Shown here: positions 8,457-36,093 of the stretch, piece after piece
Layout of the letters: the number at the start of each line of letters is the position of its first letter
Numbering within the stretch: position 1 is the stretch's first letter
Source: Amphiscolops sp. MND2022
Lineage: Eukaryota
Length of the DNA stretch: 64,000 bases
Assembly: GCA_964187785.1 (NCBI GenBank)
Contig: OZ076409.1
Coordinates: 12,340,001-12,404,000 of the forward strand
Reading direction: 5' to 3'
Notes under the pieces: generated by a model
Told to the model about the DNA's origin: nothing
The model's input: the letters and a program-made list of their open reading frames with translations, nothing else
Databases searched by the model: none
Program-made: the position numbers and the translations under genes

Positions 8457-8485
8457 GGATGTAACCTTGGTAACCCCGCCCGGAG

Positions 8486-8840: not shown

Positions 8841-9098
8841 TTAAAAGGTCTGATGCTCAAGGAAACTGGGATTGTTTTTCAAGAGAATGTTTCTTTCTTA
8901 GGTTTACTTTTTGCTCCGTTTATCTCCGGTATAATTAACTCAGTTTAATTCACCCAATGGATTAACATGCAATTTTACTCTCGCGAATTCTAACTGGTCA
9001 ATTGTATTAACAAGAACTAATACTATCTAAGGCAAATCTTCGTGCAAAGGAAACCACAGAGTGCCGAAAAATTCTTAGGTAGCTACCAGAAAAGAAGT
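8841..9098 (+). repeat. second copy of a ~260-bp tandem duplication; carries the empty BEL insertion site
   Basis: TTAAAAGGTCTGATGCTCAAGG...AATACTATCTAAGGCAAATC...GCTACCAGAA matches 2501-2688 joined to 8771-8840. Confidence 0.9.
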
Positions 9099-18171: not shown

Positions 18172-18572
18172 TGAGCTGTTAAAAAGTTGTGTGGTGGTTT
18201 CTTTTAGGAGTGTTAGTACTGACATAAGAAGTCTAAGATTTTAACAGCGGAGTCGTCTTATCTTATATCTTGTAGCTAGCTAGTTCTGAGAACAATCTAT
18301 TTCTGAGATCTCAGTTATCGAAGTGCGGGAGGAAGACCGATTGTTAGGATGAATTCTCAATTTCTCCGAGTAGATATATTCTATTAACTAGGGTAGGTTA
18401 CATCAATTAACAATGTGACAGCAACAGGATGAATCAGGGGAGCTTGATACAGGATCTATTAAATGAAGTTTCTTAGCTTCTAAATTAGATTACATTTACT
18501 AATTGCTTTGGTTAAGAGTTCAGAGTATTTCAGATTTATAGAATCTTTGAGGACATGCATCATGGCATCACA
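18172..18572 (-). repeat. 3' LTR of the giant Gypsy element
   Basis: Plus strand TGAGCTGTTAAAAAG...CATGGCATCACA, same length as 35693-36093. Confidence 0.97.
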
Positions 18573-19630
18573 ATCAACCGGGAATTTAAAATAAATTACA
18601 TATATGCACTTTGGGTTTGAGGAGTTCTAGAAGTTTTTGTTATATGCATGGGTTTGTTTCATATGTGTTGTACTAGAGTTGTATGAGTTTCGTTTTGTAG
18701 AGTACCATACTTAAGGAGTGAGAACAACCTAAGACGATTTGACTTCTTACGTCATAGACGATTCAATTGGTGCAAAAAGGTTCAGGCAAGGTTCAAGTTC
18801 TTTCAGTTTCTTTGACTGACAAGTTCTTTGAAGTTATTGTTGACAACTATTTATCATTTCATGTTTCTTTTTCGTATCAGCCATCAGCTTGTTTGAAAAA
18901 ATTCTTTCATCAACATGAGTTAGTCAGCATTGAAAACTTTTCAAGTTGAAGAATTAAAGCGTGAAGTTGTCAATGAGTTGTGAACCAACATTGGCGGGTA
19001 TGTGAACCAAAAGTGAAGAAGTTTCGAAAAGTCAAGGTTCAAGTGAGAGTTCCTTTTCAACGAAAGTGAAGAGTAGAGCAGAGGCAAAAGTTGAAAAAAA
19101 ACTTTGGCAATTTCAAGTTTCAAACATTAGAAAACTAGAAGGGACATTTTTTAAGAGTTCCAAAGAAAAATTTGGAAAATTTTTGGGAATGCTTTTGGGG
19201 ATTAAAACAAAGGTGTAGAACATGTTTTGTAAAAGAAAAAATTTTTGTCCAAAAATCTTAGAAAATTTCTTGTACTGTAGGTAGGACTTGTGTTCTGTAA
19301 AAGATGGGTATTGGAGATATATTTTTGAAGTGTATTATAGATGTATCAACATAATTAGATAAGATTAAGTTATTGTACTATACACAAGACAATAGGAGCA
19401 GATAATATTGTGGTTACAAAGATAATTATCGGTAGAATTTTGAAGGGATTTTGCAATAATGGGGTAATTAGAATGCGATTACAGAAGAATAAGATTATAT
19501 AAGAGTATATAGCACTAAAGATTAGGGAAGAGTATATAGCATTACACTGTATTAAAGTTATAATTTGATTAAAATAAGTTACAGGTTATATTGGTTAAAA
19601 GTGATTATACAGTTCAGTTTGAAAATTGAG

Positions 19631-19852
19631 TCAAGTTTTGATTATAATGTTTGAAATTTGGAGTGGAGTATAGTCCATTAGAGTTTGAAGACCAGTCAAG
19701 AAGTCAGCATTTGAGGTGTGAAGACCAGTCAAGAAGTCATCGTGGAGTGTGAAGACCAGTGACGAGGACAAAATTTGGCAACGTCGATGAACCCAAAGTG
19801 GAGATGGATGTTGTTGACCATCGAGTGTGGGTGGAGTGAAGAGTTTCAGCAT
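19631..19852 (-). CDS. small orphan ORF (73 aa) with a 33-bp internal repeat (DFLTGL(H/Q)T)
   Basis: ATG-started, same strand and codon bias as the element. GAAGACCAGTCAAGAAGTCA is repeated. Coding status is uncertain. Confidence 0.3.
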   Translation of the reverse strand: MLKLFTPPTLDGQQHPSPLWVHRRCQILSSSLVFTLHDDFLTGLHTSNADFLTGLQTLMDYTPLQISNIIIKT

Positions 19853-19969
19853 GTGTAGGAGTTTTTTGAAGGAGTGATCGACAGCTACATCTCAAACATC
19901 ATTGAAGAAGGATGATGGATTCAAGAAGAGATGGAGTTGAAGAGTGATAAAAGTAAGTAGAATATTGTT

Positions 19970-20422
19970 TTAGTTGTAGAGAGGATGTTGTTGAGGTGGG
20001 TGTGCCTGATGTTGATGAGGATCATAGTGTTCGAGTTTCTGGGTATATCCAAAACTATGAAGCATCTCGTTAAATGCGTTTGTGGCTTCGTGTAGGGCAG
20101 CTTGAAAATATTGGTCTTTAGACGTGAACGCCGAGTTTAACACAAAAACGACGTTAGAAGCCGTTTCACAAATGGCAATTTTTGGTCCGGCGACATGAAT
20201 CCTTGAATATTGTTCAAATGTAATGTGTTTCTTTTTGATTTGGGCGACATTATATAGGACTTTCAGAAAGACGATAAGAGATTTTGGCGATATTTTATTG
20301 TTATTGATCTCCAGGGAAATTTTGTAGGCCTTTGTGTGAAAAATAGCTGCTTTTAGGCTATGAACTTTTGAGTGGCTGGAAGTCATTGTTATTATATCTT
20401 GTATTTCAGCGTTGGGGGCCAT
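19970..20422 (-). CDS. orphan accessory ORF (150 aa) of the Gypsy element
   Basis: Intact ATG-to-stop ORF in good context (GTCATGG), preceded by a pyrimidine-rich tract. Globular-like composition with a Q/H/P tail. No family recognised. Confidence 0.6.
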   Translation of the reverse strand: MAPNAEIQDIITMTSSHSKVHSLKAAIFHTKAYKISLEINNNKISPKSLIVFLKVLYNVAQIKKKHITFEQYSRIHVAGPKIAICETASNVVFVLNSAFTSKDQYFQAALHEATNAFNEMLHSFGYTQKLEHYDPHQHQAHPPQQHPLYN

Positions 20423-20841
20423 GACGAGAGAGTCCTGTAGAAGACGAAAAAGGAGAAGTGGAGATGTTCTGAAAGAGAATGGAAGGAGGAGGAAGAAGAA
20501 TGGATGTTTCTAAAACAAAGGAAGTGTAAGAAGAATGACAATATCAAGTCAAAGATGTACAACAAAATTGGGTGCTATAATGTATCATATGTAGTGTTGT
20601 GCTATATTGTCTTGTATGTCTTGTATTGTAGTTTTTTTTGATAGAAATAGTTAGCTTTTTGACATGTACTGTAGGAAAAAATAGTGTACTTGAAAAATAG
20701 TCCTGAGATTTCATTCAAAAGCAAGAATTTACTTTAAATAAGTAGGTAAAAATGAAAATACCTTTTATAATGTGCCACAGATGTATCATAGAGTGTACCA
20801 GAGAAGAAAAATTAGGAACTTTATATTACCTGTAGAAGAGT

Positions 20842-22224
20842 TTAATGAAGATTAGTTGAGTTAAAAAGAGTAGTTATAGTTTCCAAAGCAGATTGGATTG
20901 CTTGGGATGGTTGAGTGATGCGTTGAGAGTCTAAATCGAGTGTCTGAAGGAGTTTGTGTGTTCTGTCGTAGCAGTGTAGTATATGTGTGAGTGTTGTGAT
21001 AGATGTTTCAGAGGAGTTTCGTTTATAGGGTTCAAGTAAACTTGTTATGTCGCGAAGTGTTCGATTGTTTAATACAGAGGAAAGTTTGTCAGGAGCGTTT
21101 TTTATGGGTGAAGCGTGTGCTTTATGTTCAGTTTTTTGTTCAGCTTGTACCATGAAAGAGATAGTTTTGGCAGAGATAAAGAGAAGTTCATTGTAGGAAT
21201 ACGTTTGCTTGTAGAGTGCTGTATAGTACGTTCTATCTTTATCGTCAAGTGGAGAAGATACTAGGTGTTTAATAACAGTAAGAGGTTTGGCAATTTGAGT
21301 AGGAATGTTGCAAGGCAACAAAAAATCATCGTAATGTATGAGATATTCTTGAGGTACAATAAGTGGGCGTGAAGTATTGTTGTATGGAAGCAAACAGATA
21401 TATTGTTTTATAGGGTCATAGTTTCGAAGGTAGCCTGTTATACAGGAGTGGTCCAGAGTGTACATATTTGTCATTGTGAACAGTGATGTATATTTGTAAT
21501 TGACAAAAATGTGATTTTGGGGTTTCGTGTATTGCAGGAATTTAGTATATGTTTGATGATGAGTAGCTTTTTGTGCTATAGAGAGAAAAAATGGATCAGA
21601 TTCATCTGTTTTGAGATCGTATATAGAAGGTCGAAGAAAATTGAATTGGAGAGAGAAAATTTTAACTCCGTTTTTGACCCAATATTGGTATGGACCCATT
21701 ATTTTGGAAGCAATGGATGTGAAGAAGTCTTGATTTTTGTCAAATAAGCGAAATGAATAGTCAGTAGGATGCATATATAGAGAAGTTGGCTGTGCTTTGG
21801 AGACGAACTCGTCAGTAGAAAGAATTGAGGTCAAATAATCGTCGCGGTTCGTGCAAAGTGAAATTTTTGAAGGTATTGAAGGAGGATATATTGGTGATGA
21901 AAGAAAGATTGGATTTTTCATAATTTCATATCGTTTTTTTGGAGGAGGTGGTGTCGATTGTGTATGATCAGTATCATCTTGTGGAGGAGTTGGTTTTGAA
22001 TTTTCGTTTTCAACTGTTGTGTGTTCTATTGGTTCAAGAAAAGTTGGAGGTGTTTGTTCTGAAGTCTCAATATAGAAAACAGGAGAATCATTTGAAAGAG
22101 GTCTAGTTATAAGATCTGTTGGGGTTGCTTGTTCAAGCTGAGTTTGTAGGTCAATTTGTGCTTGTGTCATTGTTTTAAAAACATCAACAATCACAGTGTT
22201 ATCTATTCCAAGAGGCCTTAGCAC
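20842..22224 (-). CDS. orphan accessory ORF (~460 aa) of the Gypsy element
   Basis: Long uninterrupted frame in AT-rich DNA downstream of env. Contains PPPPKKRY (NLS-like). No family recognised. Confidence 0.75.
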   Translation of the reverse strand: MLRPLGIDNTVIVDVFKTMTQAQIDLQTQLEQATPTDLITRPLSNDSPVFYIETSEQTPPTFLEPIEHTTVENENSKPTPPQDDTDHTQSTPPPPKKRYEIMKNPIFLSSPIYPPSIPSKISLCTNRDDYLTSILSTDEFVSKAQPTSLYMHPTDYSFRLFDKNQDFFTSIASKIMGPYQYWVKNGVKIFSLQFNFLRPSIYDLKTDESDPFFLSIAQKATHHQTYTKFLQYTKPQNHIFVNYKYTSLFTMTNMYTLDHSCITGYLRNYDPIKQYICLLPYNNTSRPLIVPQEYLIHYDDFLLPCNIPTQIAKPLTVIKHLVSSPLDDKDRTYYTALYKQTYSYNELLFISAKTISFMVQAEQKTEHKAHASPIKNAPDKLSSVLNNRTLRDITSLLEPYKRNSSETSITTLTHILHCYDRTHKLLQTLDLDSQRITQPSQAIQSALETITTLFNSTNLH

Positions 22225-22433
22225 TTTAAAGTGAAAGTACTATAAATTACACTAACGAGTGGATTTATCAACTTTAGTTGAAGAGTTTTTGAAGACGGTT
22301 ATTATTGGAGAAGTATTGTTGGGCTGAGGAAGATGAACTTCTGCAAGAGTTTCGAGCGGTGGAGGAGTAGCAATTGTGAAGAGATAGTAGGGAAGTGTAC
22401 TGAAAGAGAGTTACAGAAAAACTGAGAGAGTGT

Positions 22434-25141
22434 TCAAGAAAATGGAGGAGGAAAAGGATAGTTTATCCGCGAATAGATTTTAATTGGTGTATCCGTAGTA
22501 GAAGTGACAGGATTGTTAATTAAAGTGTCATGTTGAGTAGTTAGATTGTCATTCGAGTGAAAGTTTTTATGAGTATAATTAGAAAGTGGAGGATGTTGAA
22601 CAGGAGAGAAAGGAAGTGGAGCCGTTTCATGGTGAGAATTGTGGTGTCGTTTCGGAAACAAGTTAAATTTAGGAAATTGAATTTTGTTAGGACGTTTAGT
22701 GTAGAAAGGTGGAGGGGAAGTAACATCTGTAGAATGGTTAATTAGATTTGGAGAAGTGTCAATAAAATTATCTAAAGATTTGGATTTTAAAATCGTACTT
22801 TTGGGTTTTTTGTTTTGAGTCTCATGGAGGTCACTGACCATTCGTGCTGTAAGCACATTAAAAAAACCATGTGCTATAGAACTAAATAAAGTAATATTAT
22901 TTTTGAGATTATATTTAATAGATATTGTTTTGTAAAGTTTTACAATGAGTGTAAGAGTAGCTTGTACGAAAAGAAATGTAGAAAAGTATGTACCACATTG
23001 TGTGAGAATGTAACAAGGGTATCCAAAAAGTGCAATAAAAGCATCTGAAAACCATGTAGGTTTAAAAAGAGGAGTTTAATTCAAGAGTTTATCATGGAGT
23101 CCTATACGTAATGTATTGTAAGGATTACCAGAGTCTTGAGGGGAATCTGCATCGTAATTTGGAGTATTAGATGAAATGAAGGAATAACTAAGAGCTTTGC
23201 CTAGTAATTGGAGTGTAGAATCAGAATGTTTAGAAAATAAAATACGGTTCCAAAATTGATCAAGTTCTGCATTTGAATATATACCAGCATCTTGGGCTGT
23301 AAAAGTATTAGGGCGTATTGTAGTTTTGATTTGTGAAGGTGTAATCATTAGTGGAGGTTTGCGTTTAATAGGTTCAGTTCCAAGAATGTAAAAATCTTGA
23401 TCGTCTGAATCAGGATCTAGTTCAATAATGTTACGTGGATTATTATCACATGTAATTGGTGTAGCATAATCATAAGTTTGTCTTGTAATAGGATCAACGT
23501 ACATTAAGGTATCTTTAAAATGTATTGGTATACGGTCAAAGCATCTATCTGCTTTGTATAAAGGAGATAGAAAATGAGGACAGTCGTAAAGCCAGGCGGT
23601 TGAGCCTTCAACGTATAAGAAGTTACTTCTATTACCGGTTAAGAGAAAACCAGCAAGTTGAGGGTTTTGTACTGACATTGCGAGTATTGTAAGGAGTTGG
23701 TTTCGTTCTAGTTCACATATTGTATGAAGAGTATTTAGTTCTTGTACTGTCATTGATCGGAAAACATGATTAATAGTATAATCGATTTTGGTGTTTATAT
23801 GTGCATCATAATCAATGGTAGCAAAATTGTTTGAGACATTTAATGCAGGGAATACAAATTTGTTATTTGAAGTGTCTAATACTATTTTACCAGAAATATA
23901 TTCATCAATCATGGAATGAGGATTGGGTTGTCCTGTATGCATATTGAAACCATCAATGTATGTTACAAAAAGGTCTGAAAATTGTGTAGAATAAAGAGGG
24001 TCTGGTTTACCACAAAAGGTTTGTGCTGTAGGAAAAACTTCAAACTTGAAAGACTTGGATTATTTGGATGTTGTGTATGAGGAGCATAAACATAGGGATG
24101 TTCTGTACCTTTGATACCAGAAGCTGTTTTAGATTTTATTGGATGTGGAGAATGTACAAAAGAGTCTGTTTCAATCCAATATCTATCTTCAATTTTAGTC
24201 ATACGTCCAATAAAGTCTTGTAAGGTAAAAATTAGACAATAATCATCAGTGAACCAAACAAAAGTAAAATGAGTTTTTGTAGTGGGTTTACAGAAACCAT
24301 CTGCAAAATAGCAGGGTAATGTATGTCCATCGATTATCATGTCATTAGATGTGTCATCATATGTAAGTTCCACTTCAGAAATTTCTAGCCGCCAACTAAC
24401 TAAGTTGACTTCGAATTGATGATGAGCAGGACAGTTATGATAAGGGTTTTGAGTAGGGTCATATATCCAGTTTTTATCAGCAGGCATAAATGTAAATGTA
24501 CCTGTATACATTTCGTTCAATTGATATACAGTGAAAGGGGTTTGATATTGTTCTAAACGTTCTTGAAAACAATGATCTTCTAAGAGTGTAAAAGTTTTGT
24601 TGTATTGAAAGTTATTCAGTATTTTATCATTTGTACCATTTAAATGTCTCATAATGTTTTTACATTCTACTGGATCAAGAGTAACAGGGAGCGGTAATAT
24701 ATTATGATTCCATACGGTTCTATCAACACGACGGTATTTTACGGAACCTTGAAAGCATATTTTCCTTTCTTTCTTTGCATAAGCAACACATTTAAAAGCT
24801 TTGATGCGTTTAGCTTTTGCTCGGACATATACACGGGCTTTAACACTTGCATGCTTAATGTCGGAAGGAGCTTCAGTGCATTGTTTTACATTGAGTAGAT
24901 TAAATTGTCTCAGATTGTGTTGTTTTGCACAGTCATAATGAGAAACCATGAGATTTGTAATATTCGGGTCATCCGATGGAAGATAGTTTTCTGTGTCAGA
25001 GGGTGTTATGGGTATGGAAAAAGTAGAGTTAAATAAATGTAAATAAAGAATTAGATGTGTTATGTAAAAGGTTGTGTAGGGTTTAAAAAGATGTTGTATA
25101 TTTAGGACCGGAATATGGGTTACAGAAGACAATGTTGCCAT
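22434..25141 (-). pseudogene. env: envelope glycoprotein, chuvirus/gB-like class III fusogen (one frameshift ~24048, one TAA at 23076-23078)
   Basis: Hydrophobic signal (FYITHLILYLHLFNSTFS), then HYDC...NLLNVKQC, a Cys-rich ectodomain with NxS/T sites, TFCG..LYST..SDLFV and ICELERNQLLTILAMSVQNPQLAGFLLTG...G...LYDC...CFDRIPI...DPITR...ITC. Reading through the stop gives a TM region and then the in-frame ORF 22434-22856 as cytoplasmic tail. Confidence 0.8.
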
Positions 25142-26324
25142 ATGTGATAGTGGGTATATTGAGATCGCGTTCAAATTCAATATGTACTACTTCAAAAGGA
25201 GCAGGAGAGGTTTTATGTTCCATTTTAAAGACGTGAAATATTGGGTGTGGATATAATCCTTGAAATTTGACTTTGACTTCAAACTTAAGTTCTAGATTTG
25301 ATGTCTGGAGGCGTTTTAGTTCTGTTTCTTTGCGTTTGTGCGATAAGAGGTCGTTGTTGTTAATGAAACGTTCTGCAAGAATTGGAAATCGGGGATCGTT
25401 TTAAGGGTCGTAGATGGTTATACCATCGACTCTTAGTGGATAGTCAGCAAAATTTGGAGTTGGAGGTCTAGAGTGTTCTGCAGTATAGTGTTCGGGCAGT
25501 CTAATATGTGCAGGAACAGGAGTAGGGATTACCACTTGTGAGAAAAGGTCTCCTGATAAAAATGCAGTCTGAGGGTTAGATGAGAGTAGTGAAGCGGTTT
25601 CAAAACCAGAAGTAAAATAAGGAGATTGGAAGAGTTCTGAAGATGGTGTGTCAGAGGACAATGGTTGAGCGTGTTGTCGTACAAGTCGTAATGCAGAAAT
25701 GCTAGAAAGAGCCGAAAAATTGAGTGTTGAAGTGTCTGTACTAAGTCTACGTGAAGGAAGGTCACGAAGATTATATCTATGTTTAGGTACAAAAAGTAAG
25801 CTTGTGTCTTGTGATGGAGCGTAGTCTGAAGTATTATTGTCTAAAAGATTTGAGAGTGATGTAGAGGGTTTTCGAAGAGGTTTTAATGGTGGATAAAGTT
25901 TTGAAGAAGTAGTGCTAAGTTCGGAAGGTAATTTTAGTGAAGGTAGCTTTGTATATTCGGTATCAGGGATTTGTACAAGATTAAGTTGAGGTTGTAGTCT
26001 AACAGTTTTGATAGCTGTAGGATGTTTGTATGTTACGTATTGTTCAACACTTTCAGGGTTTGGTATATGTATAATAGGAGTGTTAATAGGAGTTTGTTGA
26101 GGACGAGTGTTTATAGGAATTTCAGTTATAGGTGGTCTGTGAAGAAGGGAGGAAGAGGTGGTTTCAGAGATGTATGATCTTGATCTTTTAGAAGGAGTAG
26201 TAGGAGTTACATTACTAGAGTTTGTAGTACTAGATACTGAAGATTCAGGTGGGGAAGGAATACTTGGAGCTGATGGAGATATATCAGAGGGAGGATCCAG
26301 GGTTGTTGAAGTGTTTTCAACAGG
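25083..26324 (-). pseudogene. S/P/T-rich ORF3 between pol and env (~410 codons, one internal TAA at 25401-25403, no ATG start)
   Basis: The frame is open from 26324 through the 25401-25661 ORF, and after one stop it continues to 25083, overlapping the env start. Contains PSAP and LYPPL. Confidence 0.6.
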
Positions 26325-26410
26325 TTATGTTTGAGATAACTTGTTATGGGTTATATTTCATTCAACTGGTGTGACTAGTTTTGAGTGAGCCAACGGATAG
26401 AATGACTGGA

Positions 26411-29400
26411 TTACAGTTTTGAAGGTGTAATAAAAAGTCTATAATCTAATTTGGGTTGTTGTCGTAGTTTAGAAGTAGTTTTTGTGGTTCTGTCATTTAG
26501 AGGAGGAAGTGAAGTTGTTTGGTTATTAGATGAGTGTCTTGATCTGTCACTAGAGACATTAGTGTGAGGGGTATTAATTATATGTCTATACAAGGAGTTG
26601 TCATTGGTTGAGGGAGTCAAAGACTTGTCATTGGATGTTATAGATGGTGTATTCTGATTGGATGTACTAAATGATGATGGTGTTACAAATGTTTGGGAAT
26701 CTTCTTCTGACAACGATTCGTCTGAGTTAAAAGGAGAAGAATCACTGTTTGCATATTTGATAGGTTGTGGAATTTGAAATTGAGTTGTGTCTGAAAAGCG
26801 CATAAAACTACGCATGTGTGGATATAAAAGTGGTTCTTTTGGATAATATGGAATTAATTGATTTCTGTGGACGTGGACTGTAGAGCCATCTTGTGCAAGT
26901 AGTTCGTATGTGACGTCTGATAATCTGTCAAGAATTTTGTATGGTCCAATCCGAAGGGGTTTTAGTTTGTCAGAAAAGTGAACGTGTGTAAAATTGCGTT
27001 TTAAAACAAAGGTACCAATAGGAAGGGGTTTACCTTCATGGTAAGTTTTTGTAATATAGGCGTGTGAATTGATTTTTCTTAGAGTGTTTTCGTATACTGT
27101 AGAATAAATTTGTAACATAGCAGTTTCTACAGCGAGAAACCAATGTGGAATGGGTTTTGAAAGTGTTTTATAGAAAAATGGGTTTAAATCTGATTTATCA
27201 TAATGGGAGTGTGCTGGAAGTTGAGAGCAATATCGTGAAATACATGTTTTAGAGGTGTCTCGGTTAAGGTTCAAATCAAATGTAAGGGGTATTCTGGGTC
27301 GGGTGTGGAAAACAATTTCGTGAGGTGAAATGTTGAGTTCTGAAAGTGGTTGTGAATTATGTGCATAAGCGTACATATGGACTTGGAATGCCCAATCTTT
27401 AGGTGTGTCATGTAAGAACATTCGTAAATGGGTACCAAGATTTCTGTTTTGTACTTCAACAAGGCCGTTTGTCCAAGGAGAGTAAGCTGTTTTAGGAGAC
27501 TGACGAATTCCCATAAGTGTGCAAAGGTGTGCCATTTCTTTATTAACATATTCTGATCCACAATCAGTGACAAGATATATGGGTGGTCCAAATTTAATAA
27601 TCCAATGGTGTAGGAGAATTTTGATAGCAGTCTTTGCGTTGTTTGATTTGATGGGTACTGTAACAACAAAGTGACTAAAAGCGTCAATTATCACGTGTAT
27701 ATAGGATTTGTTGTGAGAAGGAGGATTAATAGGTCCTTTAGTGTCCATTGAAATTCGATAGTTGAAAGATGGAGCATGTTCTGAAAATGATTAAGTAGGA
27801 GCAGTTTGAATTTTCATATTAAAGTGTTTGTTTCGTTGACATTCAATACAATCATGTATGAAAATGGAAAGCCATTTTTCAAGGTATGGAATGTAGTTAT
27901 ATTGTTTGAATGTATTGTAGGTGCTTTTCATACCAGTATGAGAGTGTTCATGGAGTTTGTTAAAGACAGTTTTAAACAGTCGGAAAGGAAGGCATATACG
28001 AATAGTGTCTTGTACAAAATTTGGAGTAGAGGATTGGTTGATAACAGTGGGGTTTGTAATATATAGACAAATAAGATTTGTGGATTCGTCAATGAAAAGT
28101 TGTGAAAATCTTTTGTAATAAACATGTAAAAATGGAGTACCAGTGATAAGAGGTGTTACAAATTCGGGTTTTTCATTGTTTAATAACCAAGAATAAACAG
28201 TTCTAAGAACCGGATCTTGGGATTTTTGATGTTGAAGAGTTTTTATGTCCAATGAGTAATCATCTGGAAGGAAGAAACCTTGAAAATAGTTTTTGTACTT
28301 AAAAAATGATGTATCATTGAAAGGTATGATTTGTTGACAGTGTGTGAGAGATGGTAAATTTGGTTGTACATTTATTGCAGAAATTGATTTTTGTGAGGTA
28401 GTGTGAGTTGGTTGTTTAAGAGTAGAATAATTTTCTGTTTGTAATGTTGTATCTTGTAAGAAGGAAGAGTCAGATTTTGGAATTCTGGTGTAAATATGAT
28501 CTGCGTCATCACTTGTAACGTCTATCATTAAGTAAGAGAGATTGTTGATGGAGGGTTTTGTTGTTCTTTTTTGTAGGTGTCTTGAACTTAGTTTGAAAAG
28601 GAGTTATGGATTTGAATGAGAAGGATTGTAACGGTTTGACAACAATGTCTTTTCCTTTATCATTGATTCGAATAGAGAATTGATCTGTACCATAATCAGC
28701 AAGAACTGGATGAGAGTCATGTTTTTGATGAGGTAAAATTTCTTCATGTTTCATAAAGTAATGTACAGGTTTAAGAGTGTTATCTTGTAAAAGTGCAAAA
28801 TCGATTTGTGGTGGGAGGTGTTTATGTTTTAATTGGTTTAGTTGTAATTCAGCTTTTGTAAAGGAGCGACTCAACATATCGGCAACAGAGAGATTTTTTC
28901 CAGGAGTATGAATTATTTTGAGTTTTGAAAATTTTGTCAATTGCATTTGAGCTCTGTAGAAACGATGACTGAGATTACCTTTCTTTGTAAAACAATGTAA
29001 TAAAGGTTTGTGATCAGTAAAATTGTGCATTGTATGGGGAGAACCTATGATGAGAAATTCATAGATTTGAAGTGCGTGTACTATACCAAGAAGTTCTCTA
29101 TCAAGTGTGGAGAGTTTTTGTTCTTGTGGATTAAGTATACGAGAGTTGTACGATATGACTTTCATTTTGTTTTGTTCATTCAATTGAAATAAGACAGCGC
29201 CTAATCCAATAAGGGAAGCGTCAACTGTAATGAAAAATGGATGTTTTGTATTTGGTATTGTTAATTCTGTTTCAGAAGTGAGAGACATTTTAAGTTTTTG
29301 GAATAGACTTTCGTGTTCGTCTGTCCATTTCCAAGGAGTGTTCTCATGTAAAAGATCGTAAAATGGTTTGAGGTTAATATGTAGTTTTTCAATAAATTTG

Positions 29401-32400
29401 GTGTAAAAATTGAGTGCGCCAATGAAACTCATTAGAGCAACTTTGCCAGTTGGAGAAGGGATCTTATGAATAGCTGCAGTTTTTGAATGAATTGGTTTAA
29501 TTGTATTGTAACCAATTTCATGTCAAAGGAATTTGACTTTAAGAAGCATGAAAAAGGATTTTTCAGGGGCTAGTTTAAGATTTGTTTTGTACTAATATTG
29601 TGTAGTTGTTCTATGAGTTGGAACATGTGTTCTTTTGAATCAGATAAAAGTAATATATCGTCAATGTAGACAAGAGCGAAACCTTGTTCTATAAGAGTTT
29701 TAAAGAAAGTAGACATTTGTTTTGTAAAGAAGTTTGGTAGTCCTTTGAGACCATAAAAGCTTCGGATAAAAGCGAAAAGTTTATCTCCGGAGGAGAAACT
29801 AGTAAGTTTTATAGTATCTTCGTCAAGAGGTGTATGTGCATAGGCATACATAAGGTCAATAGCAGATTTATTTGTACTTTTTATTTGCGCGTGCTAGTTG
29901 TGGAGCAAGAGGTTCAATAGGCCAAGATTCATCGGATTGTTCTGTATTGGAGTTAAGATGTCGAGCGTCTAATACACATTTTATTGTATCTCCCTTGGGG
30001 ATTATAATAAGAGGGTTTAAATAAGTTGTGCCATAAACGGGTTTGTCTTGAGGAGAAGAACCAATTTGTTTAATAATGTTATATTTTTCGAGTTCTTTGA
30101 GAAGTACGTTAAGTTTGTCTCGGTAGTGGATAGGGACTTTGGAAGGACGTTGTGTCATAAGTTGAGCATTTGGTTTAAGTCGTACACGAAATGGTGTTGA
30201 AATTTTTCCAACATCGTTTTTATGAGTTGCATAACATGTTTTATATTTGAGTAACATATTGCAAAGAGTAATGTATTCTGAATCTGTAAGTTCAGAAAAT
30301 TGGAAGTTAAATTTATTAATAAATTTCAGATTTTCAGAAGTATATGGTAGAGAAGGAAAAATGCGTTTTTCGGAAGTATGAGAAGTAGGCTGAACGTTAT
30401 ATAAAGGAGAAGTTTGATTTGGAATGTCGTTATTTGCAATATGAATTTGATGTAGAGAGAATTGAGGAGGAAGGGTTGTAGTATCATCATATTGTACAAT
30501 ATAGTTGGTCTGTGGAAGTGGTTCAGTAATATCAGGATGATAAGTATGGGTAACGTTATGTATTAAAGTATTAATGTCGTTAACTTGGAAGAATTTAGAT
30601 TTTTCATTAGTAATTGGAACTTCAATGTATCCAATATGTCCTGTAGGTAGGGTTGCAATATGTTTTGAAGTGTTCTGAGTAATAGTTGCACAAATATCTG
30701 GCTTGTCGTCTGTAAATACTTCAATGAAATTGAAATTTGTACGGAATTTGGTAGAAAAAAACGTATGAGGTACTGAAGGAAAGAAGTGGTTTTGTGGTGT
30801 GGTTGTAAAATGAAGATTATGATAATTTTTGATCGGAAAGTGTGCAATTTTTGAAGATTTGGGTTTTAGACGTATCTGAGTTTTCGAGTTAATTCTATTA
30901 ATGTAAGAGAAGTATGGATAATCTTTAGATAGGAGTGTTGTGAATTTTGCATAATTTGGGTGTGTTTTTGATTGGTATTTAAATTCGAGTGTAAAATCTT
31001 GTATGTTTATGTTTTGTATATTGTCTTCAAAGAATGGTGTGCCAAGGATGTTGTATTTGATATCAGCTACTGCGAAAGGTACTGAAAAGTAACGAGAGTT
31101 TTCATGAATAGTGGTGTTCAAAATTATATTTGCATAATGTAAAATAGGAACTTCAGTTTGGTTTGCAACGGTTAATGTTTTGGAATTTCGAGTTGGTCCA
31201 ACATCAGAGGTGTGATTTAATCTAATATCTAGGAGTTTTGTAAGAGTTATGTATGTTGGGTAATTGAGTACAGAAATGGAAGCACCGCTATCTAGGAGGA
31301 ATGCAATTTCTAATCTAGATGGGTTGTCTCTTTGTACTATACTTGATGGGGTGTGTACATATAGTGTATAAAACCAACTTGTAGATGTGACAGCATTTGC
31401 CATTGCTGTTGGGTGATACATGTGTACTTCAAATTTGATAGGGTCAGTTTGGTCTTGTTGTTGTATCATATTGACTTTATTTCTAGAATTGGAGTGTGAG
31501 CGAGATCTAGAAAATCTAGAGTCTCTTGGTCTTGAAGGTGGTCTATATGAATTTGTGTACTTGGTGAATTTGTTATCTCTTGAATAGGAGCGTGATCTGT
31601 ATCTAGGACGAGAGTTTTGTCGATATGGGGATCTATAAGAAGATCTGTAAGGAGAACGGTAAGATCGAGAATCACGTTTGTATGTATCATATCCTGATCT
31701 AGAGTAGTGTGGAGGAGTAGTACTTTTGTCGTAACGAAATCTGTCTCTATCTCGAGATGTAGAACGGTATCGGTTTTGTGAATAATTTTTGTTGTAAGAG
31801 TTGTCTCGTGAGGAACTTCGACTTCGGTATCGATTATCATTGTGTTTTGTTCTGTCATTGGAAGGGGAACGAAAGTACTGAACGAATGATTTTTGTGGAG
31901 ATTTTGATCGAGCATATGCTTCTCGTTTATCTTCATCATCTCGTTGTTTTTTGAAACAGGCAGAAATGGAGTGATTTGTTCTATGACAGTATGAGCAATG
32001 TTTTTTATATGCAGGTTTATTTTTGTTATTTGGGTCTTTGGGTTGTGTATACATAAGTTGTTCTTGAGATGAGTGATCAAGAGTTTGAGTGTTCAATTGT
32101 TTTGTAATATTATTAATTTCAAGTGCAAGATCATGTGTTCTGATTTTGTCGTTTGCTATGTCTTCAGCATCAACAAGTTTTACTAATGTATGAAAAGGAA
32201 TTGAAGGTTCTAGAATAGTGGAGGTGTGTTTTACTTGTCTTTTATTTGCAAAATCTTTAAGGTTTTTTGGAAGTCCTTTTGTAAAGGCTTCATTACCTTT
32301 AAGGTTTATAGTAGATGCATTCTCATTACACCAGCCTTTTTCAACCAGCTGTTGAAATTTGAGTGCAAAATGACGTACTGTTTCATTATCTTTTTTTGTT

Positions 32401-35000
32401 AAATTAAGGGCTTCAACTTGAGCATAGTAAGCGTTCTTTTGTGAAGAAAATTGTTTTTTGAAAGCTTGTACAAAAGCGTGCCAATCATGTTTATAAGTGT
32501 CGTTTAAACGAATGTACCAGCTTAGTGCTGTACCTGTTAAAGAGCATTGTATGAAAACCATGCGACGGGCGTGCCAAAATTTATATTCATGTTCCGATGT
32601 AGGTTGTAAACCTAAGGAAAATGTAACACGTGCCTCAATATGTTGTAAATACTCTTCAGGTGTATAGTTGTGATCGAGTCCATCAAAAGGTTTAATGGGT
32701 TCTGATATAGAATTGGAAGAATTAATATATGTTGGGTGTGACATAGTGTTATGAGACATAGTAGATGCAGGTGTTGTATTGTATGTGGGGTTATTGGAAA
32801 TATTAGGTAAAGAAGTAGTTGAAGTACTATGAAAGTGAGGGTTAGTTCTAATTGTTGTTGAAGGAGGATTTGGTATTTGAAATTGAGAAGTTTGTAATGT
32901 AGGAGTGATTGTATTGGATGTATGTTGGGAAGAAAAAGTATTTAATTGATTGGATGTATTGTAATTTATTTGAGATAGTTGTGTATTACTTGGGTTAGTT
33001 TTGGTGAGACTGTATGATAATGGATTAGTTAATATAGGTTGTAATGGAGGTCGAGAAAGATGTCTGGCAGTGGTATAGTTTGTAGATGGGTTGGAATGGA
33101 TGGTGTTAATGTTTAAGGTAGTTTGTGTAGTTTGTACTGAATTGGTTTGAGCTGGAGTATAATTCGAAGTTTGTATTTCAGAAGATGATGGTGGAGTTGG
33201 TGTTTGAAAATGTACTGTATTATTGTTTTGTGCAATGTAGGGTGTATTTGATGAGCTTTGTTGAGGAGTGTCATGGGTGTTTATTTGAGTTGAAAATTGG
33301 GGTGGAACAGAAGGTGGATTACAATTTCGAGGAGATAGTGTTTGTGTCTGAGAGGGTTGAGTAATGTTAGTATTAGATGTAGATAAAATAGAGGTATTGT
33401 CTGGATTTGTATTTGAAGTGTTGTCTTGATTTTGGTTTGTAAATTCATTTTGTGTGATATTGTGGGTAGGAATTATTAAAAGATTTGAATCATCGGTTAT
33501 TGTAAAACTTCGTGTATTTTGTACTGTTTCTTCAGAAAATTCTGATGTATTGTGAATTTTATTTGTTTCAGAAGGATTTGGTTGTTGCATATCTGAGATT
33601 TGTGATAATGGTGGGTATGATGGTTGTTCTTGAGGAGGATCAGGATTTTGAAAAAGATTAACAAGGGCTTCTTGTTCTGGAGATTCTTGTTCTGATTGTT
33701 CTGATTGTTGTCTTGTATATGAAGGTTCAACACTAGAGGTTTGTTCTTCAGGAATTGTTTCATGAGAAGTATCAGGTGTAGTAAAGGGTCTGTTATCTGA
33801 TGTTTCAGAATGTTCAAGTACAAAGTTGTGATCTAAGTTTATTTGTTCAAAATGTGTAACATTTAATGAAGTAAGATCTCGGTAATGTAAATGTTTGTTT
33901 TCATTTTTTACGATGTATGGTAAGAGTTCTATATGTGTTAATATTTGAGGGAAGTTAACATAGGCTTGTTGATCTTTTTGTTCCCAAAATAGTTGGTAGT
34001 TAAATCTAAGAAACTTTAATAAGAATTGTGTAAAAATTTTGACTTGAGGTATAGTGTCATCTGTAAGAATAATGTTGTTATAGAATCTGTACTGAAAATG
34101 TTTTATTTGTAAGATATCTCGTTGTAACCAATAATGAGGATTATCATGTCGTTGGACTTTCGTGTCAAGATCTGGGACCTCGAAATATTCAGATCTGTGT
34201 TTTAGTTCTTGTAAATGAGAAGGACGATAAGGTGGTGTGTCTTGGTTTTCATTGAATTCAATGAGTTTTTGCATGTATGTGTGAAAAACATCTTGTATAG
34301 AAAGTGTAATATTTTGTGGGTGTATAGTTCTAAAAAATGTTCCAAGGTTTATTCCTTTAACAGGGTTAAAAATAACTTGAAAAGGGATTTGTGATGGTGT
34401 AATATCAAGTGTTTTATAGTGGATATAATATAGATAAGAATCACAATGTTCTCGTACTAATGAAATAGTATGTAATATATGGGGTTCTGTTTCAAATGGA
34501 AGTGGGTTTGTGTACTGAAAGATAATGTTTTGTAGAACAGGTGTTACATCTTGTATAAGAGATCGATTTTGTCTTTTGTCAGTAGTGACTGTTAATGGAG
34601 TGGGAAGCATTATATGATATTAAGTTTGATTAGTACAATAAGATTGCCATAGAGGATAGATGTATCGGAAAAGAAGATATTTTGTATTGAATTGTGAATT
34701 ATATGGAAAAATTTGCTCTATGAAAACAACTTGTAAGAAAAAAGTAAGTGCAACACTTATGAAAAGAAGGAATGGGTATTGTATATATTGAATAAGTGTA
34801 TGGAAAGTGTGGTAGATACTAAGTAGTCCAAAAAGAGGTAGTACTATACTTGTTAACATAGAAGAAAAAGGTTGTACTTCAAAGTTTTGGTATGAATGAA
34901 ATTAAGAATTTGTCCAGAAAGAGTGCAAGACCGGCAATGATAGCAACAAAAACCAAAAGCAGACAATGAGTTTAACTATAGTGTCCACTGAAGGCGGCAT
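26411..35000 (-). pseudogene. gag-pol: Gypsy Gag-Pol polyprotein (leader-Gag-PR-RT-RH-IN), disrupted by several stops and frameshifts
   Basis: Capsid-like PFDG..., LTGTALSWY..W..F...F; zinc knuckle CSYCHRTNHSISAC; protease LLDSGAS; RT VYIDD; RNase H VDAS..GLGAVL, RELL, TDHKPL, ADMLSR; integrase HEHSH..CIEC, IDAFSH, TDCGSEY, NGLVE and IGPYKI. Lesions near 34903, 34621, 29868, 29585, 29524, 28520 and 27791. Confidence 0.93.
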
Positions 35001-35672
35001 ATACAATAAAGTTCTTTTAGAGTATGTCAAAGGAGTTGTACAAAAATTTGTTGTATATAGGTGTATGAAAAATGAAAGTTATATAAAGAAATATGTGATG
35101 TATGTGTTATATATTTTAATTGTTATGTATTTGGATCCGTAAGCTAGTTTTAAAAGAGTTTTGTATGTTATTTGTACTATAGAGGAGAGAACAAGAAAAG
35201 TATTATAATTATATTATGTAAAAAATATGTGTTATATATGTGTGCCAACTTTAAAGTTGATCCAAGCGGCTAGAACCAAGGAGATTTCTACTAGCTGGAA
35301 TCGCTGGATAGCACTGAAGAAGGGCCAACACGTATCGCACGTCTGCGGTTGGAACGGAAGAAAGAGAGAAAGCCAACACAAATTCACTCAGTGGTGGTTG
35401 GAACGAAAATTTTACTGACAGGAATTACGTCAAGAAACGTAGTCAGAACCAAGAAATATGAATGACAGGAATTACGGTGAGGAACGCAGTCAGAACCATA
35501 GCAACACGGATCAATTTCAAATAGAAATTGGTTGCAACGTTGAAGTTAGTAACGATAGGCGATATTGAGAGGTGGAGAAACTGTGTGTCGAACAAAGAGG
35601 TAGCGTATGAGAAAGTCGAGGAAAGAGGTACAACAATTGTAGATGTGTGAAATAAATGGGAGAGAAAAAAGA

Positions 35673-35690
35673 ATTTTCTTGGTCGCACCA
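35673..35690 (-). promoter_or_regulatory. primer-binding site (TGGTGCGACCAAG...) 2 nt downstream of the 5' LTR
   Basis: The minus strand reads LTR-CA|AT|TGGTGCGACC, complementary to a tRNA ending GGUCGC-A-CCA. The isoacceptor is not determined (possibly Gly). Confidence 0.75.
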
Positions 35691-35692
35691 AT

Positions 35693-36093
35693 TGAGCTGT
35701 TAAAAAGTTGTGTGATGGTTTCTTTTAGGAGTGTTAGTACTGACATAAGACGTCTAAGATTTTAACAGCGGAGTCGTCTTATTTTATATCTTGTAGCTAG
35801 CTAGTTCTGAGTACAATCTATTTCTGAGATCTCAGTTATCGAAGTGCGGGAGGAAGACCGATTGTTAGGATGAATTCTCAATTTCTCCGAGTAGATATAT
35901 TCTATTAACTAGGGTAGGTTACATCAATTAACAATGTGACAGCAACAGGATGAATCAGGGGAGCTTGATACAGGATCTATTAAATGAAGTTTCTTAGCTT
36001 CTAAATTAGATTACATTTACTAATTGCTTTGGTTAAGAGTTCAGAGTATTTCAGATTTATAGAATCTTTGAGGACATGCATCATGGCATCACA
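35693..36093 (-). repeat. 5' LTR of the giant Gypsy element
   Basis: Upstream of the PBS and gag on the minus strand; about 99% identical to 18172-18572. Confidence 0.97.

Follow-up and report, generated by a model that had tools for sequence, protein, structure and literature searches.

A 17.9-kb envelope-bearing Ty3/Gypsy element with three candidate accessory genes in the genome of Amphiscolops sp.

Introduction

Regulatory and accessory genes are textbook features of vertebrate retroviruses. The Gypsy-type 'retroviruses' of invertebrates are, to our knowledge, treated as having three genes at most. Here, we ask whether a Gypsy-type element in Amphiscolops sp. MND2022 exceeds this number, i.e., whether the open reading frames (ORFs) around its envelope gene are genes of the element, passive cargo or chance open frames. 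The element lies in a stretch of 64,000 nucleotides (GCA_964187785.1, contig OZ076409.1, positions 12,340,001 to 12,404,000), referred to as the window, and all positions are given within it. A preliminary description had proposed a complex, probably enveloped lineage with accessory genes. The envelope family and the selected extra genes of that proposal stand, but its membrane leader and its 73-residue ORF do not, and the envelopment and the gene functions are what we infer from the sequences. Overall, we judge it likely that the locus is a dead Ty3/Gypsy insertion with a chuvirus-type Env and three selected, probably spliced accessory genes.

A single insertion of a high-copy element

Positions 18172–36093, on the minus strand, are a single insertion of a high-copy endogenous retrovirus-like element of about 17.9 kb from Ty3/Gypsy (Metaviridae). 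All genes and motifs below are on this strand. The two LTRs, 401 nt each with TG...CA ends, form a direct repeat (5' LTR 35693–36093, 3' LTR 18172–18572) with 4 mismatches and 99.0% identity. They are flanked by a target-site duplication, AAAG on the sense strand, found upstream at 36094–36097 and after the 3' LTR at 18168–18171. A primer-binding-site-type motif, TGGTGCGACCAAG (35678–35690), begins 2 nt past the 5' LTR and is exact in 9 of 11 copies. Its core, TGGTGCGACCA, is conserved 2 nt past the LTR both in the subfamily of this copy (A) and in a sister subfamily (B), and one pattern search for a complementary tRNA gene gave 0 matches. At the other end, the 3' untranslated region of 1.4 kb (18573–19969) closes with CCCGGTTGAT, which adjoins the LTR at the place expected for a polypurine tract. 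Copies of family A conserve this motif, and B has a similar one; no classical polypurine tract was found beside the 3' LTR. The LTRs, the duplication and the primer-site-type motif had been reported in the preliminary description, and all are present.

Between the LTRs, gag-pol, the Ser/Pro/Thr-rich ORF3, env, ORF465 and ORF179 follow each other on a single strand. This is the order described earlier, with the former '460-aa' ORF now counted as 465 codons and the '150-aa' ORF as 179 codons, or 150 residues from its first Met. The sense strand contains 8–14% G in every part, including the non-coding ones, while the flanking DNA contains 17–18%. The studied copy is mutationally dead, as gag-pol, ORF3 and env are all broken.

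A first look at the LTR gave 2858 candidates genome-wide. The ten further copies that were fetched are all collinear at full length across all ORFs, with about 94–99% identity per BLAST segment, except for copy-specific deletions and one internal duplication. A perfect 4-bp duplication, different in sequence each time, is found in 10 of the 11 copies, at the outer LTRs only. The earlier worry that the extra ORFs might be missing elsewhere, or carry target-site duplications of their own, is answered by these copies. Within copies, the LTR pairs are 97.8–99.75% identical (11 copies), and in one copy of subfamily B the LTRs are identical, which bears out the recent activity proposed before. The subfamily B element is about 18.8 kb with the same gene order as family A, and its ORF3 (477 codons), env (925 codons) and ORF465 homologue (577 codons) are open. 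Env is 53% identical between A and B, and the synonymous sites are saturated.

The length could also be explained if the 17.9 kb were a composite, in which transposons are nested in an ordinary Gypsy element. The locus is about twice as long as the env-bearing Gypsy elements considered here from a published table (about 7–12 kb by their LTR positions; PMC13524379), and another retroelement and a satellite are located in the same window. However, the internal order is identical in all ten other copies, the sole direct repeats of at least 60 nt within 18172–36093 are the LTRs, subfamily B shares the layout, and the base composition is uniform throughout. The collinear copies, the repeats, the position of the duplications and the layout of subfamily B refute a nested composite, and we give it practically no weight compared with a single long element.

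Gag-Pol and the class of the element

The gag-pol gene (26411–34610) is ancestrally a single ORF of about 2,735 codons. In this copy it is interrupted by frame changes near 29868–29893, 29522–29570 and 28509–28603 and by an in-frame stop at 27791–27793. At each of these breaks the frame is open in other copies. Of 13 full-length copies examined, not one had a fully open gag-pol. From the gag ATG (34608–34610), a conserved N-terminal Gag region extends to about 33825, and further downstream we find Retrotrans_gag (Pfam; 32337–32552), a CCHC knuckle (31956–31997), an Arg/Ser-rich stretch (31476–31826), the protease motif LLDSGAS (31278–31298), the reverse transcriptase motif YIDD (29657–29668), RNase H (about 28929–29327), the integrase HHCC motif (27839–27952) and the integrase core (27476–27763).

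The Pfam families are Retrotrans_gag, RVT_1, RT_RNaseH_2/RT_RNaseH, Integrase_H2C2, rve and SH3_Tf2-1, in the order PR-RT-RH-IN with the integrase last. Among solved structures, yeast Ty3 Gag-Pol is the best match to Pol (E 9.6e-46), followed by a caulimovirus polyprotein (1.5e-25) and foamy virus (1.3e-15). By its Pfam families and its best solved relative, Pol is of the Ty3/Gypsy type, in agreement with the class assigned earlier. A Pfam search of the element found none of the BEL/Pao families DUF1759, Peptidase_A17 and DUF5641, which rules out BEL/Pao (Anakin-type) membership. Membership in the Retroviridae is ruled out by a Pol closest to Ty3 together with an Env of family PF24664.

To study selection, the variants among 11 copies were divided into those shared between copies and singletons, and each set was counted as nonsynonymous/synonymous (N/S). 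In gag-pol, the shared variants are 21/83 and the singletons 308/153.

The envelope gene

The env gene (22434–25186, about 918 codons) is open in copies a and f and appears to code for a chuvirus-like class III fusion glycoprotein. Its landmarks are a first Met at 25139–25141, a hydrophobic anchor at about 22950–23030 and a long Pro/Ser/Thr-rich tail. In the studied copy, it is damaged by a frame change within 23963–24059 and an in-frame stop at 23076–23078. The match to PF24664 scores 79.3 bits in family A (copy a) and 96.1 bits in B, where the Pfam cut-off is 27 bits, and the env gene of the preliminary description is thus a real viral envelope gene. The same family is present in 45 of 47 database relatives. 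In BFVD, 11 of the best 13 matches are named, and all of these are glycoproteins of chuvirus-like or related arthropod-hosted viruses (chu-like, qin-related, xinmovirus), with E-values from 2.7e-9 to 1.6e-4. From these sequence matches, Env can be assigned with confidence to the fusion glycoproteins of the Monjiviricetes/chuvirus (Jingchuvirales) type, a Pfam family of class III. The shared variants in env are 8/29 and the singletons 147/62.

A class III fold is suggested by the Pfam match together with weak fold matches. The Env model has a mean pLDDT of 34.5, and only residues 125–310 reach 50–76. In a comparison with 48,161 solved chains, herpesvirus gB or rhabdovirus G make up 3 of the top 6 matches, in the fusion domain and at weak Z-scores of 4.5–5.2. 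For residues 125–310, the matches to HSV-1 gB domain I (Z 5.2, rmsd 4.9, 133 aligned residues), HCMV gB (Z 4.9) and Chandipura G (Z 4.5) are all below the level that the tool regards as clear. A simple hydropathy scan finds a hydrophobic N-terminus at residues 8–30 of the B env and an anchor at residues 731–749 of the A env, as in a type I membrane protein. Particles of this element would then probably be enveloped.

The additional open reading frames

ORF3, ORF465 and ORF179 match no Pfam family, no fold and no atlas entry. Nevertheless, the variation among copies and subfamilies strongly supports that all three are genes of the element kept by purifying selection.

ORF465 (20842–22239) is open in the studied copy, with the first Met at 22168–22170 and the stop at 20842–20844. 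It is open in 76 of the 91 best-scored genome matches, and in a 67%-identical subfamily in 88 of 90. ORF179 (19970–20509), which is small and basic, is also open here, with its first Met at 20420–20422, and in 133 of the 150 best-scored matches. All these counts are from the best-scored of thousands of candidates and are biased towards good copies. ORF465 aligns to its homologue of 577 codons in subfamily B (41% identity, E 9e-59), while no counterpart of ORF179 is detectable in that subfamily. The structure model of ORF465 has a mean pLDDT of 33.0. In ORF465, the shared variants are 3/17 compared with 70/27 for the singletons (p 3e-6), and in the two wrong frames the shared variants become N16/S2 and N20/S3. 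ORF179 has few shared variants, 0/6 compared with 27/13 (p 0.003), and its wrong frames show stops and a nonsynonymous excess among these.

ORF3 (25083–26324, 413 codons) has a conserved C-terminal part. In copies a, c, f, j and k its frame is open; here it is broken by an in-frame stop at 25401–25403. ORF3 of A and B share 38% protein identity (E 8e-35), and the shared variants are 5/16 compared with 58/49 (p 0.016). The protein contains a conserved basic cluster and an invariant YPxL motif, whose Y144, P145 and L147 are the same in all 12 sequences compared. In Pro-rich proteins, late-domain-like motifs are expected by chance.

Could these be chance non-coding frames? The sense strand has only 8–12% G, and therefore TAG and TGA are rare, which together with the absence of any family, fold or atlas match is what such frames would look like. 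However, the synonymous excess of the shared variants in the three ORFs is specific to the frame and gone in the other two, and untranslated regions of the same composition show neither a synonymous excess nor a long open frame kept across copies. For ORF3 and ORF465, chance is refuted by the A/B alignments at E 8e-35 and 9e-59 and by the frame-specific excess, and as an explanation of the extra ORFs in general we hold it to be highly improbable.

A second alternative is that genes captured from the host or another foreign source are carried as passive cargo, useless to the replication of the element. Captured ORFs, located between pol and env or downstream of env, are known in LTR retrotransposons (from the parts of PMC6431247 drawn on here). 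It also fits this alternative that the three ORFs match no family, and that the last ORF of subfamily B is unrelated to ORF179 while lineage D has yet another unrelated ORF at this position, which resembles repeated capture. On the other hand, inert cargo should decay, but the shared variants favour synonymous changes as much as those of gag-pol and env do, and ORF3 and ORF465 are still open and homologous although the synonymous sites between A and B are saturated. The ORFs also have the extreme G-poor composition of the element, and therefore any capture must be old. We regard passive cargo as quite unlikely. The interpretation as selected genes agrees with the claim of the preliminary description that the extra genes belong to the element: they are collinear in all ten other copies, under frame-specific purifying selection and, for ORF3 and ORF465, conserved in B. 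Where that description had proposed dN/dS per ORF, the N/S counts show for all three ORFs the synonymous skew of gag-pol and env.

For ORF3 it can further be asked if it is a separate gene, or a recoded extension, either of the C-terminus of Pol or of the N-terminus of Env. ORF3 lacks any Met codon in both subfamilies, it starts 87 nt past the pol stop, its 3' end overlaps the start of env, env is at +1 relative to it in both A and B, and the database protein P0267 reads continuously from ORF3 into env. Against recoding, there are several stops in all frames between pol and ORF3, and the frame from pol to ORF3 is -1 in A but +1 in B. A fusion with Env would bury the Met and signal-like N-terminus that Env has of its own, and P0267 is a lone fused protein that may be a mutated copy. 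Recoding is in our opinion rather unlikely, if slightly less so than passive cargo. A separate, spliced ORF3 is favoured instead. When a generic donor matrix was used to look for splice donors, no strong one proved to be conserved in both subfamilies.

Two further ORFs of the preliminary description do not appear to be genes. The hydrophobic 93-codon 'membrane leader' (34620–34901), in the 1.07-kb leader, which had been listed ahead of gag-pol, is parted from gag by the stop codon 34620–34622. No counterpart of at least 110 residues is seen in the ORF maps of a B2 copy; the shared variants are N3/S4, which favours neither reading. The possible 73-residue ORF (19113–19334) lies inside the 3' untranslated region. 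It is not a gene, since it is open in just 2 of 11 copies and has shared stop variants; a synonymous excess is missing in all frames.

A possible life cycle

We suggest that a full-length RNA would start from the 5' LTR and yield, on translation, one Gag-Pol polyprotein of about 2,735 residues. It would consist of the conserved N-terminal region, a low-complexity linker, the capsid-like domain, one CCHC knuckle, the Arg/Ser-rich stretch, protease, reverse transcriptase, RNase H and integrase. Reverse transcription would be primed by a tRNA at TGGTGCGACCA, and the DNA copy would be integrated with a 4-bp duplication. Env, with its signal-like N-terminus, membrane anchor and long cytoplasmic tail, should allow particles to exit one cell and enter another. 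In Drosophila, the envelope of gypsy allows such cell-to-cell passage of particles.

ORF3, ORF465 and ORF179 would probably be expressed from subgenomic RNAs made by splicing, to the benefit of the element itself; their expression, splicing and accessory function are proposed here from the layout and the selection. ORF3 is likeliest a downstream exon spliced to an upstream exon that carries the AUG, like CERV of Cer1. The invariant YPxL and the basic cluster would be in keeping with a function in particle release or in the export of RNA, which we think possible but somewhat doubtful.

It can be speculated that a lineage of the Metaviridae has here independently evolved a genome like that of complex retroviruses. 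It would have a chuvirus-derived envelope and at least three accessory genes from several spliced RNAs, ORF3 would be a Met-less exon that acts in RNA export or budding, as CERV or retroviral Rev/p6 do, and sister subfamilies with near-identical copies would still be transmitting as enveloped particles. We lean slightly against this full scenario, taken as a whole. If the extra genes do control RNA export, budding or host defence, this would be a case of convergent retroviral genome complexity and would provide new protein families for the study of virus-host biology. An envelope-bearing Gypsy element with three further genes, which are kept by selection and resemble no known proteins, is present in a single genome in thousands of copies that belong to several subfamilies.

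Relation to known elements

In complex retroviruses (lentiviruses, deltaretroviruses and spumaviruses), gag-pol-env is accompanied by several small genes around env, and the retroviral envelope is of class I. The present element resembles these in layout only, i.e., in small genes around env that would be reachable only through subgenomic RNAs and in a strongly biased composition of the sense strand. Its Pol is nearer to Ty3 than to foamy virus (E 9.6e-46 vs 1.3e-15), its Env is probably of class III, and no homology was found between its proteins and any retroviral accessory protein.

The comparisons that follow refer to portions of the cited papers. Ty3/gypsy elements that carry an env of class III or chuvirus-like type have been described across animals (Chary & Hayashi, eLife 2026, PMC13524379), and a chuvirus-like glycoprotein beside gypsy POL genes is reported in the same paper. 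The 'errantiviruses' with HSV/gB-type ENV share with our element a Ty3/gypsy Pol, gag-pol-env within one LTR pair, an envelope of class III and a large number of near-identical copies. However, those considered here from Supplementary file 1 of PMC13524379 span about 7–12 kb and not 17.9 kb, while our element has one gene between pol and env, two genes after env, and a Gag extended by about 680 residues before the capsid-like domain. In the portion of PMC13524379 used here no accessory genes are described, and its search left out other ORF arrangements; the primer-site string of our family is absent from its table. The 'undescribed system' of the preliminary description must therefore be narrowed. 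An envelope of this type in Gypsy elements has already been published, and the candidate novelty is the multi-gene layout of 17.9 kb only, for which no match was found in the literature searched. The element also adds a Ty3/Gypsy host for a chuvirus-type glycoprotein, which bears on how frequently retroelements capture the envelopes of RNA viruses.

Cer1 of C. elegans (Sun et al. 2023, PMC10309623) also has a gag-pol without an intervening stop. Its CERV, an ORF after pol, provides the final exon of a spliced mRNA with the first exons in gag, and is needed for the export of genomic RNA. ORF3 is similarly located after pol; it has no Met, and no match to it was found beyond its own lineage. In the text of PMC10309623 considered here, Cer1 lacks env and has a single gene of this kind, whereas our element has env and two more genes, and the splicing of ORF3 is a proposal.

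Extra ORFs and giant size are known from Vesta and Juno of bdelloid rotifers, plant Ogre, planarian Burro and foamy-like ERVs of fish, the last of which reach about 17 kb through accessory ORFs (all as given in part of PMC6431247). Like our element, these exceed about 10 kb and carry additional ORFs, either after env or between it and pol. However, the extra ORFs have recognisable domains in Burro and the rotifer elements or lie upstream of gag in Ogre, and the foamy-like ERVs are true Retroviridae; here, three orphans are combined with a chuvirus-type envelope.

Finally, the Anakin elements of mosquitoes belong to BEL/Pao and have captured a chuvirus glycoprotein (Dezordi et al. 2020, PMC7642597). 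They share with our element a chuvirus-like glycoprotein downstream of pol in an LTR retroelement, and extra genes are not described for them in the sections of that paper used here. In contrast to Anakin, Pol of our element has Ty3/gypsy families and lacks Peptidase_A17 and DUF1759. These two families, and DUF5641, are instead found in the neighbour at 2961–8456, a second retroelement of the BEL/Pao Pfam families which, together with a satellite, lies in the same 64-kb window.

Anatomy and class of the element

The element in the window is itself inactive, but the 17.9-kb Ty3/Gypsy family of endogenous retrovirus-like elements to which it belongs is very abundant and was active recently. That family is called family A below (subfamily A where it is compared with its diverged sister, subfamily B). 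The window element lies on the minus strand at 18172-36093, and both these coordinates and the gene order of the preliminary description proved right. A repeat search within 16000-38500 gives one pair of direct repeats of at least 60 nt, and alignment of the ends defines them as LTRs of 401 nt (35693-36093 and 18172-18572), which start with TGTG, end with CTCA and differ at 4 positions. AAAG is present at both outer LTR ends. Two bases past the 5' LTR begins TGGTGCGACCAAG, a TGG-initiated motif of the kind predicted to pair with the CCA end of a tRNA. A pattern search for a tRNA gene matching this primer site gave 0 matches, and the primer string is not in Supplementary file 1 of PMC13524379. 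There is no classical polypurine tract beside the 3' LTR (18573-18582, minus strand); the conserved motif adjoining this LTR is CCCGGTTGAT in A and CCCGGTCGGA in B.

All genes are on the minus strand. In the window copy gag-pol runs from 34619 down to 26411 in five stop-to-stop pieces, with three frame changes and one in-frame stop. It is followed by ORF3, a Ser/Pro/Thr-rich ORF (26324-25083) in two stop-to-stop pieces with one in-frame stop, and by env (25186-22434) in three such pieces, with one frame change and one in-frame stop. After env there are two stop-to-stop ORFs, named by their codon counts: ORF465 (22239-20842) and ORF179 (20509-19970).

In the family, gag-pol is a single long frame of roughly 2,735 codons (element positions about 1475-9683). 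Each break of the window copy is open in other copies, and none of the 11 full-length copies is open throughout gag-pol. Judged by its sequence, the element is Ty3/Gypsy in type, because (i) it matches the Pfam families Retrotrans_gag, RVT_1, RT_RNaseH_2/RT_RNaseH, Integrase_H2C2, rve and SH3_Tf2-1, (ii) its motifs come in the order CCHC knuckle, protease LLDSGAS, RT YIDD and integrase HHCC, and (iii) the best match of Pol among solved structures is the yeast Ty3 Gag-Pol (E 9.6e-46), followed by a caulimovirus polyprotein (1.5e-25) and foamy-virus Pol (1.3e-15), while (iv) the BEL/Pao families DUF1759, Peptidase_A17 and DUF5641 are absent from the Pfam matches of the window element.

The N-terminus of Gag, about 265 residues (33825-34610, minus strand), belongs to no known family and has been conserved in both subfamilies (BLASTP identity 40%, E 3e-52). 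A low-complexity linker of about 400 residues separates it from the capsid-like domain, and a Gag profile has no match in the Protein Data Bank. Between the CCHC knuckle and the protease, about 120-150 residues (31476-31826, minus strand) are rich in Arg/Ser(/Tyr) and recall the RS domains of splicing factors. This stretch is kept in kind in both subfamilies; in the B element L038, gag residues 746-895 contain 29 R, 42 S and 19 Y per 150.

The sense strand is very G-poor (G 8-14% vs C 21-29%) in every part of A and B, including the LTRs and untranslated regions. In the flanking DNA G and C are about equal at 17-18%, and a distant envelope lineage, lineage D, has 17.7% G. In variants private to one copy, C>T and G>A changes are similarly frequent and the spectrum is roughly strand-symmetric; thus, the bias is not due to recent editing after insertion.

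Copies and insertion history

The LTR has 2858 first-look candidates in the 1.07-Gb eukaryotic assembly, and the 40 that were scored are 97-100% identical. Ten further full-length copies all align collinearly with the window copy along its entire length of 17.9 kb, and their BLAST segments are about 94-99% identical to it, apart from private deletions in four copies (b, d, i and k) and one internal duplication in copy c. The 4-bp duplication is perfect in 10 of the 11 copies, each with its own sequence, and matches at three of four bases in copy c. The primer motif is exact in 9/11 copies, and the LTR pairs are 97.8-99.75% identical.

A unit of this size could also be produced by nested insertions or by a chimeric assembly. 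Both are ruled out, since the copies are collinear and 10 of the 11 carry a perfect 4-bp duplication of their own. This shows that the whole 17.9-kb unit has been inserted repeatedly through an integrase.

The accessory genes are under purifying selection

Among the ten other copies, the 413-codon frame of ORF3 is open in five and a 409-codon frame in a sixth; ORF465 and ORF179 are open in the window copy and in 2 and 6 of the ten, respectively. Genome-wide, ORF465 is open in 76 of the 91 best-scored matches (the top of 9229 first-look candidates) and ORF179 in 133 of 150 (the top of 3924), samples that favour good copies.

Variants private to one copy arose mostly after insertion, while variants shared by at least two copies were inherited from replicating ancestors. 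The two classes were therefore compared among the 11 copies. Copies with a BLAST match covering less than 90% of a segment were left out of the nonsynonymous/synonymous (N/S) counts, as were codon columns that contained gaps, had three or more states, or had two states separated by more than a single base change. Only 4 copies passed the filter in the integrase-core segment, so zero variants were counted there. Shared and singleton N/S were 21/83 and 308/153 for gag-pol (Fisher p 2e-18), 8/29 and 147/62 for env (p 4e-8), 5/16 and 58/49 for ORF3 (p 0.016), 3/17 and 70/27 for ORF465 (p 3e-6), and 0/6 and 27/13 for ORF179 (p 0.003).

The synonymous excess is gone when the shared variants are read in the two other frames, with N/S of 16/2 and 20/3 for ORF465, 11/5 and 15/2 for ORF3, and 4/0 and 3/1, plus shared stops, for ORF179. 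In the untranslated regions the same test gives a synonymous excess in no frame. ORF3, ORF465 and ORF179 are thus genuine accessory genes of the element, all three of them orphans and all subject to purifying selection. The several accessory genes claimed in the preliminary description are borne out by this frame-specific excess.

These genes resemble nothing named. Pfam gave nothing credible for any of the three up to E 5, profile searches of the Protein Data Bank with the ORF465 and ORF3 alignments gave nothing below E 0.6, and the ESM Atlas held no usable match for ORF465 or the C-terminal part of ORF3. In word-index searches with ORF465 and ORF3, all relatives were unnamed and came from one source. 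An exhaustive profile search with ORF465, in a library without protein names, gave 561 matches. Those listed, 150 in number, seem to be fragments or further members of that family, with no recognisable outside relative among them. An AlphaFold2 model of ORF465 from an 18-sequence alignment was unusable (mean pLDDT 33.0), and a search of predicted viral structures (BFVD) with it gave an incoherent list.

The envelope is of chuvirus type

The env frame is open over 917-919 codons in two of the ten other copies and over 892 codons in a third. Against Pfam PF24664 (Monjiviricetes_fusion), where the cut-off is 27, the full env of copy a scores 79.3 bits and the env of subfamily B 96.1 bits. The N-terminus of Env is hydrophobic, a hydrophobic anchor lies about 170-200 residues from its end, and the tail is rich in Pro/Ser/Thr. 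Judged by its sequence, Env is a chuvirus-type glycoprotein.

The structural comparisons are weaker. A profile search of the Protein Data Bank with the Env alignment gave nothing below E 0.6, and a word-index search with env found only relatives that were unnamed and came from one source. The AlphaFold2 model from 12 sequences has a mean pLDDT of 34.5, and only residues 125-310 reach 50-76. Among the 13 best BFVD matches of this model 11 are named, and all of these are glycoproteins of chuvirus-like or related arthropod-hosted viruses, including Tacheng Tick Virus 4, Gurupi chuvirus-like 1, a xinmovirus, a collembolan qin-related virus and Wenling crustacean viruses 14 and 15. Their E-values are 2.7e-9 to 1.6e-4, but the TM-scores are only about 0.1; with so poor a model, the fold matches are weak. 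Compared with 48,161 solved chains, the better-modelled part has matches to domain I in HSV-1 gB (Z 5.2), HCMV gB (4.9 and 4.6) and Chandipura virus G (4.5), scores too low to stand alone. A class III fold is likely for Env.

Sister subfamilies and other envelope lineages

The database protein P0029 is 53% identical to the window env and marks subfamily B, whose env is free of stops in 31 of its 50 best genome matches. Two B elements compared here are about 18.8 kb long, with LTRs of 340 nt that are 100% and 99.4% identical. Their gene order is that of A: gag-pol, a 477-codon ORF3 lacking Met, a 925-codon env, a 577-codon ORF and a 318-codon ORF. In one B copy all four ORFs downstream of gag-pol are open. 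Its one frame break, in the protease region, could be taken for a programmed -1 gag/pol frameshift, which is rejected: the second copy is continuous there, so the break is specific to one copy and gag-pol is a single frame in B too.

By BLASTP, Pol is 57% and Env 53% identical between A and B, ORF3 38% (E 8e-35), and ORF465 and the 577-codon ORF 41% (E 9e-59); similarity between ORF179 and the 318-codon ORF was not found. Estimates of dN/dS for the two subfamilies come to 0.14-0.43 and are unreliable, because synonymous sites have reached saturation (pS about 0.7). It follows from this saturation that ORF3 and ORF465 have been kept open across a long divergence. A further subfamily, whose copies are 98-99% alike, has an ORF465 with 67% identity, which stays open in 88 of the 90 best matches.

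Other envelope lineages are more distant. The lineage of the env relative P0025 is open in 47 of its 63 best genome matches, and lineage D, defined by P0047 with 27% identity to the window env, in 11 of 13. In lineage D, pol abuts env without an ORF3. The ORF that follows env there is unrelated, encodes a coiled coil and has at least 409 codons; the ORF465 family shows no similarity to it by hhalign. A gene in this position is thus common in these lineages, but its identity varies. In all three lineage D loci (L039, L041 and L042), the strand opposite the post-env ORF carries two antisense ORFs, one of 158 and one of 160 codons.

Env genes of the PF24664 type fall into five or more diverged lineages across the genome. 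For each lineage the first-look candidates number in the thousands (single queries give 8,650-12,554), and there are many copies that are open and 97-99% identical. Elements with such an env must account for a considerable part of the genome.

Proposed working and expression of ORF3

The family has the anatomy of a replication-competent element, has integrated repeatedly and has been under selection in six coding regions. By analogy with Ty3/gypsy and retroviral biology, transcription would be driven by the LTR, reverse transcription would be primed by a tRNA and followed by integration, and Env would mediate exit from and entry into cells.

ORF3 lacks a Met codon in all 11 copies of family A and in B, and between pol and ORF3 there are stops in every frame. 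In one database protein, P0267, the reading runs directly from ORF3 into env. ORF3 contains a YPxL that does not vary among 12 aligned sequences, as well as a basic stretch, HRYNLR..RRLS, that is conserved, and PPxY motifs occur in Env tails. The YPxL and PPxY resemble late-budding motifs, for which chance matches are likely in Pro-rich proteins.

The closest precedent for ORF3 is the post-pol ORF of Cer1 from C. elegans (PMC10309623). This ORF is the final one of five exons in an mRNA that starts with exons from gag, and its product, CERV, is required for the export of unspliced genomic RNA; Cer1, too, has no stop between gag and pol. Splicing of ORF3 is putative. We tentatively favour a reading of ORF3 as a spliced CERV-like or p6-like helper, a possibility somewhat short of even, because it is Met-less and stop-separated from pol, has the Cer1 precedent, and carries the YPxL and the basic stretch. 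A scan for donors with a generic matrix found no splice donor conserved between A and B.

Relation to described elements

Chary & Hayashi describe, from across the animal phyla, Ty3/gypsy elements that carry an env, with envelopes of the F or the HSV/gB type (PMC13524379). The chuvirus-like glycoprotein of mosquito BEL/Pao elements, the Anakin elements (PMC7642597), also adjoins gypsy POL in that study, and a chuvirus-type envelope in a Gypsy element is therefore already known. Their search was confined to the arrangements GAG-POL-ENV and GAG-ENV-POL. In part 1 of 34 of the paper's Supplementary file 1 the elements are about 7-12 kb from LTR to LTR, compared with 17.9 kb here.

According to the review PMC6431247, additional ORFs can be captured by LTR elements, either after env or in the interval from pol to env. 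The review applies "giant" to elements above 10 kb or so, and it cites the planarian Burro, at more than 30 kb, and the foamy-like ERVs of fish, at about 17 kb. Small accessory ORFs, one coding for a fusogen-like membrane protein, are described from Drosophila MDG1-group elements (PMC11952523). Literature searches found no described element with the same multi-gene layout; the family may be catalogued in the further tables or the sequence files of PMC13524379. The interest of the family rests mainly on the accessory genes and the Met-less ORF3.

Neighbouring features in the window

A BEL/Pao retroelement lies at 2961-8456 on the plus strand, with DUF1759, RVT_1, Peptidase_A17, Integrase_H2C2, rve and DUF5641 in one frame with two in-frame stops. 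BEL/Pao elements are not known outside animals, so an animal host is assumed here. The right 40% of the window (38300-64000) is a tandem array of about 190 or more copies of a 104-bp satellite, whose plus strand is rich in A (42%, with T at 26%).
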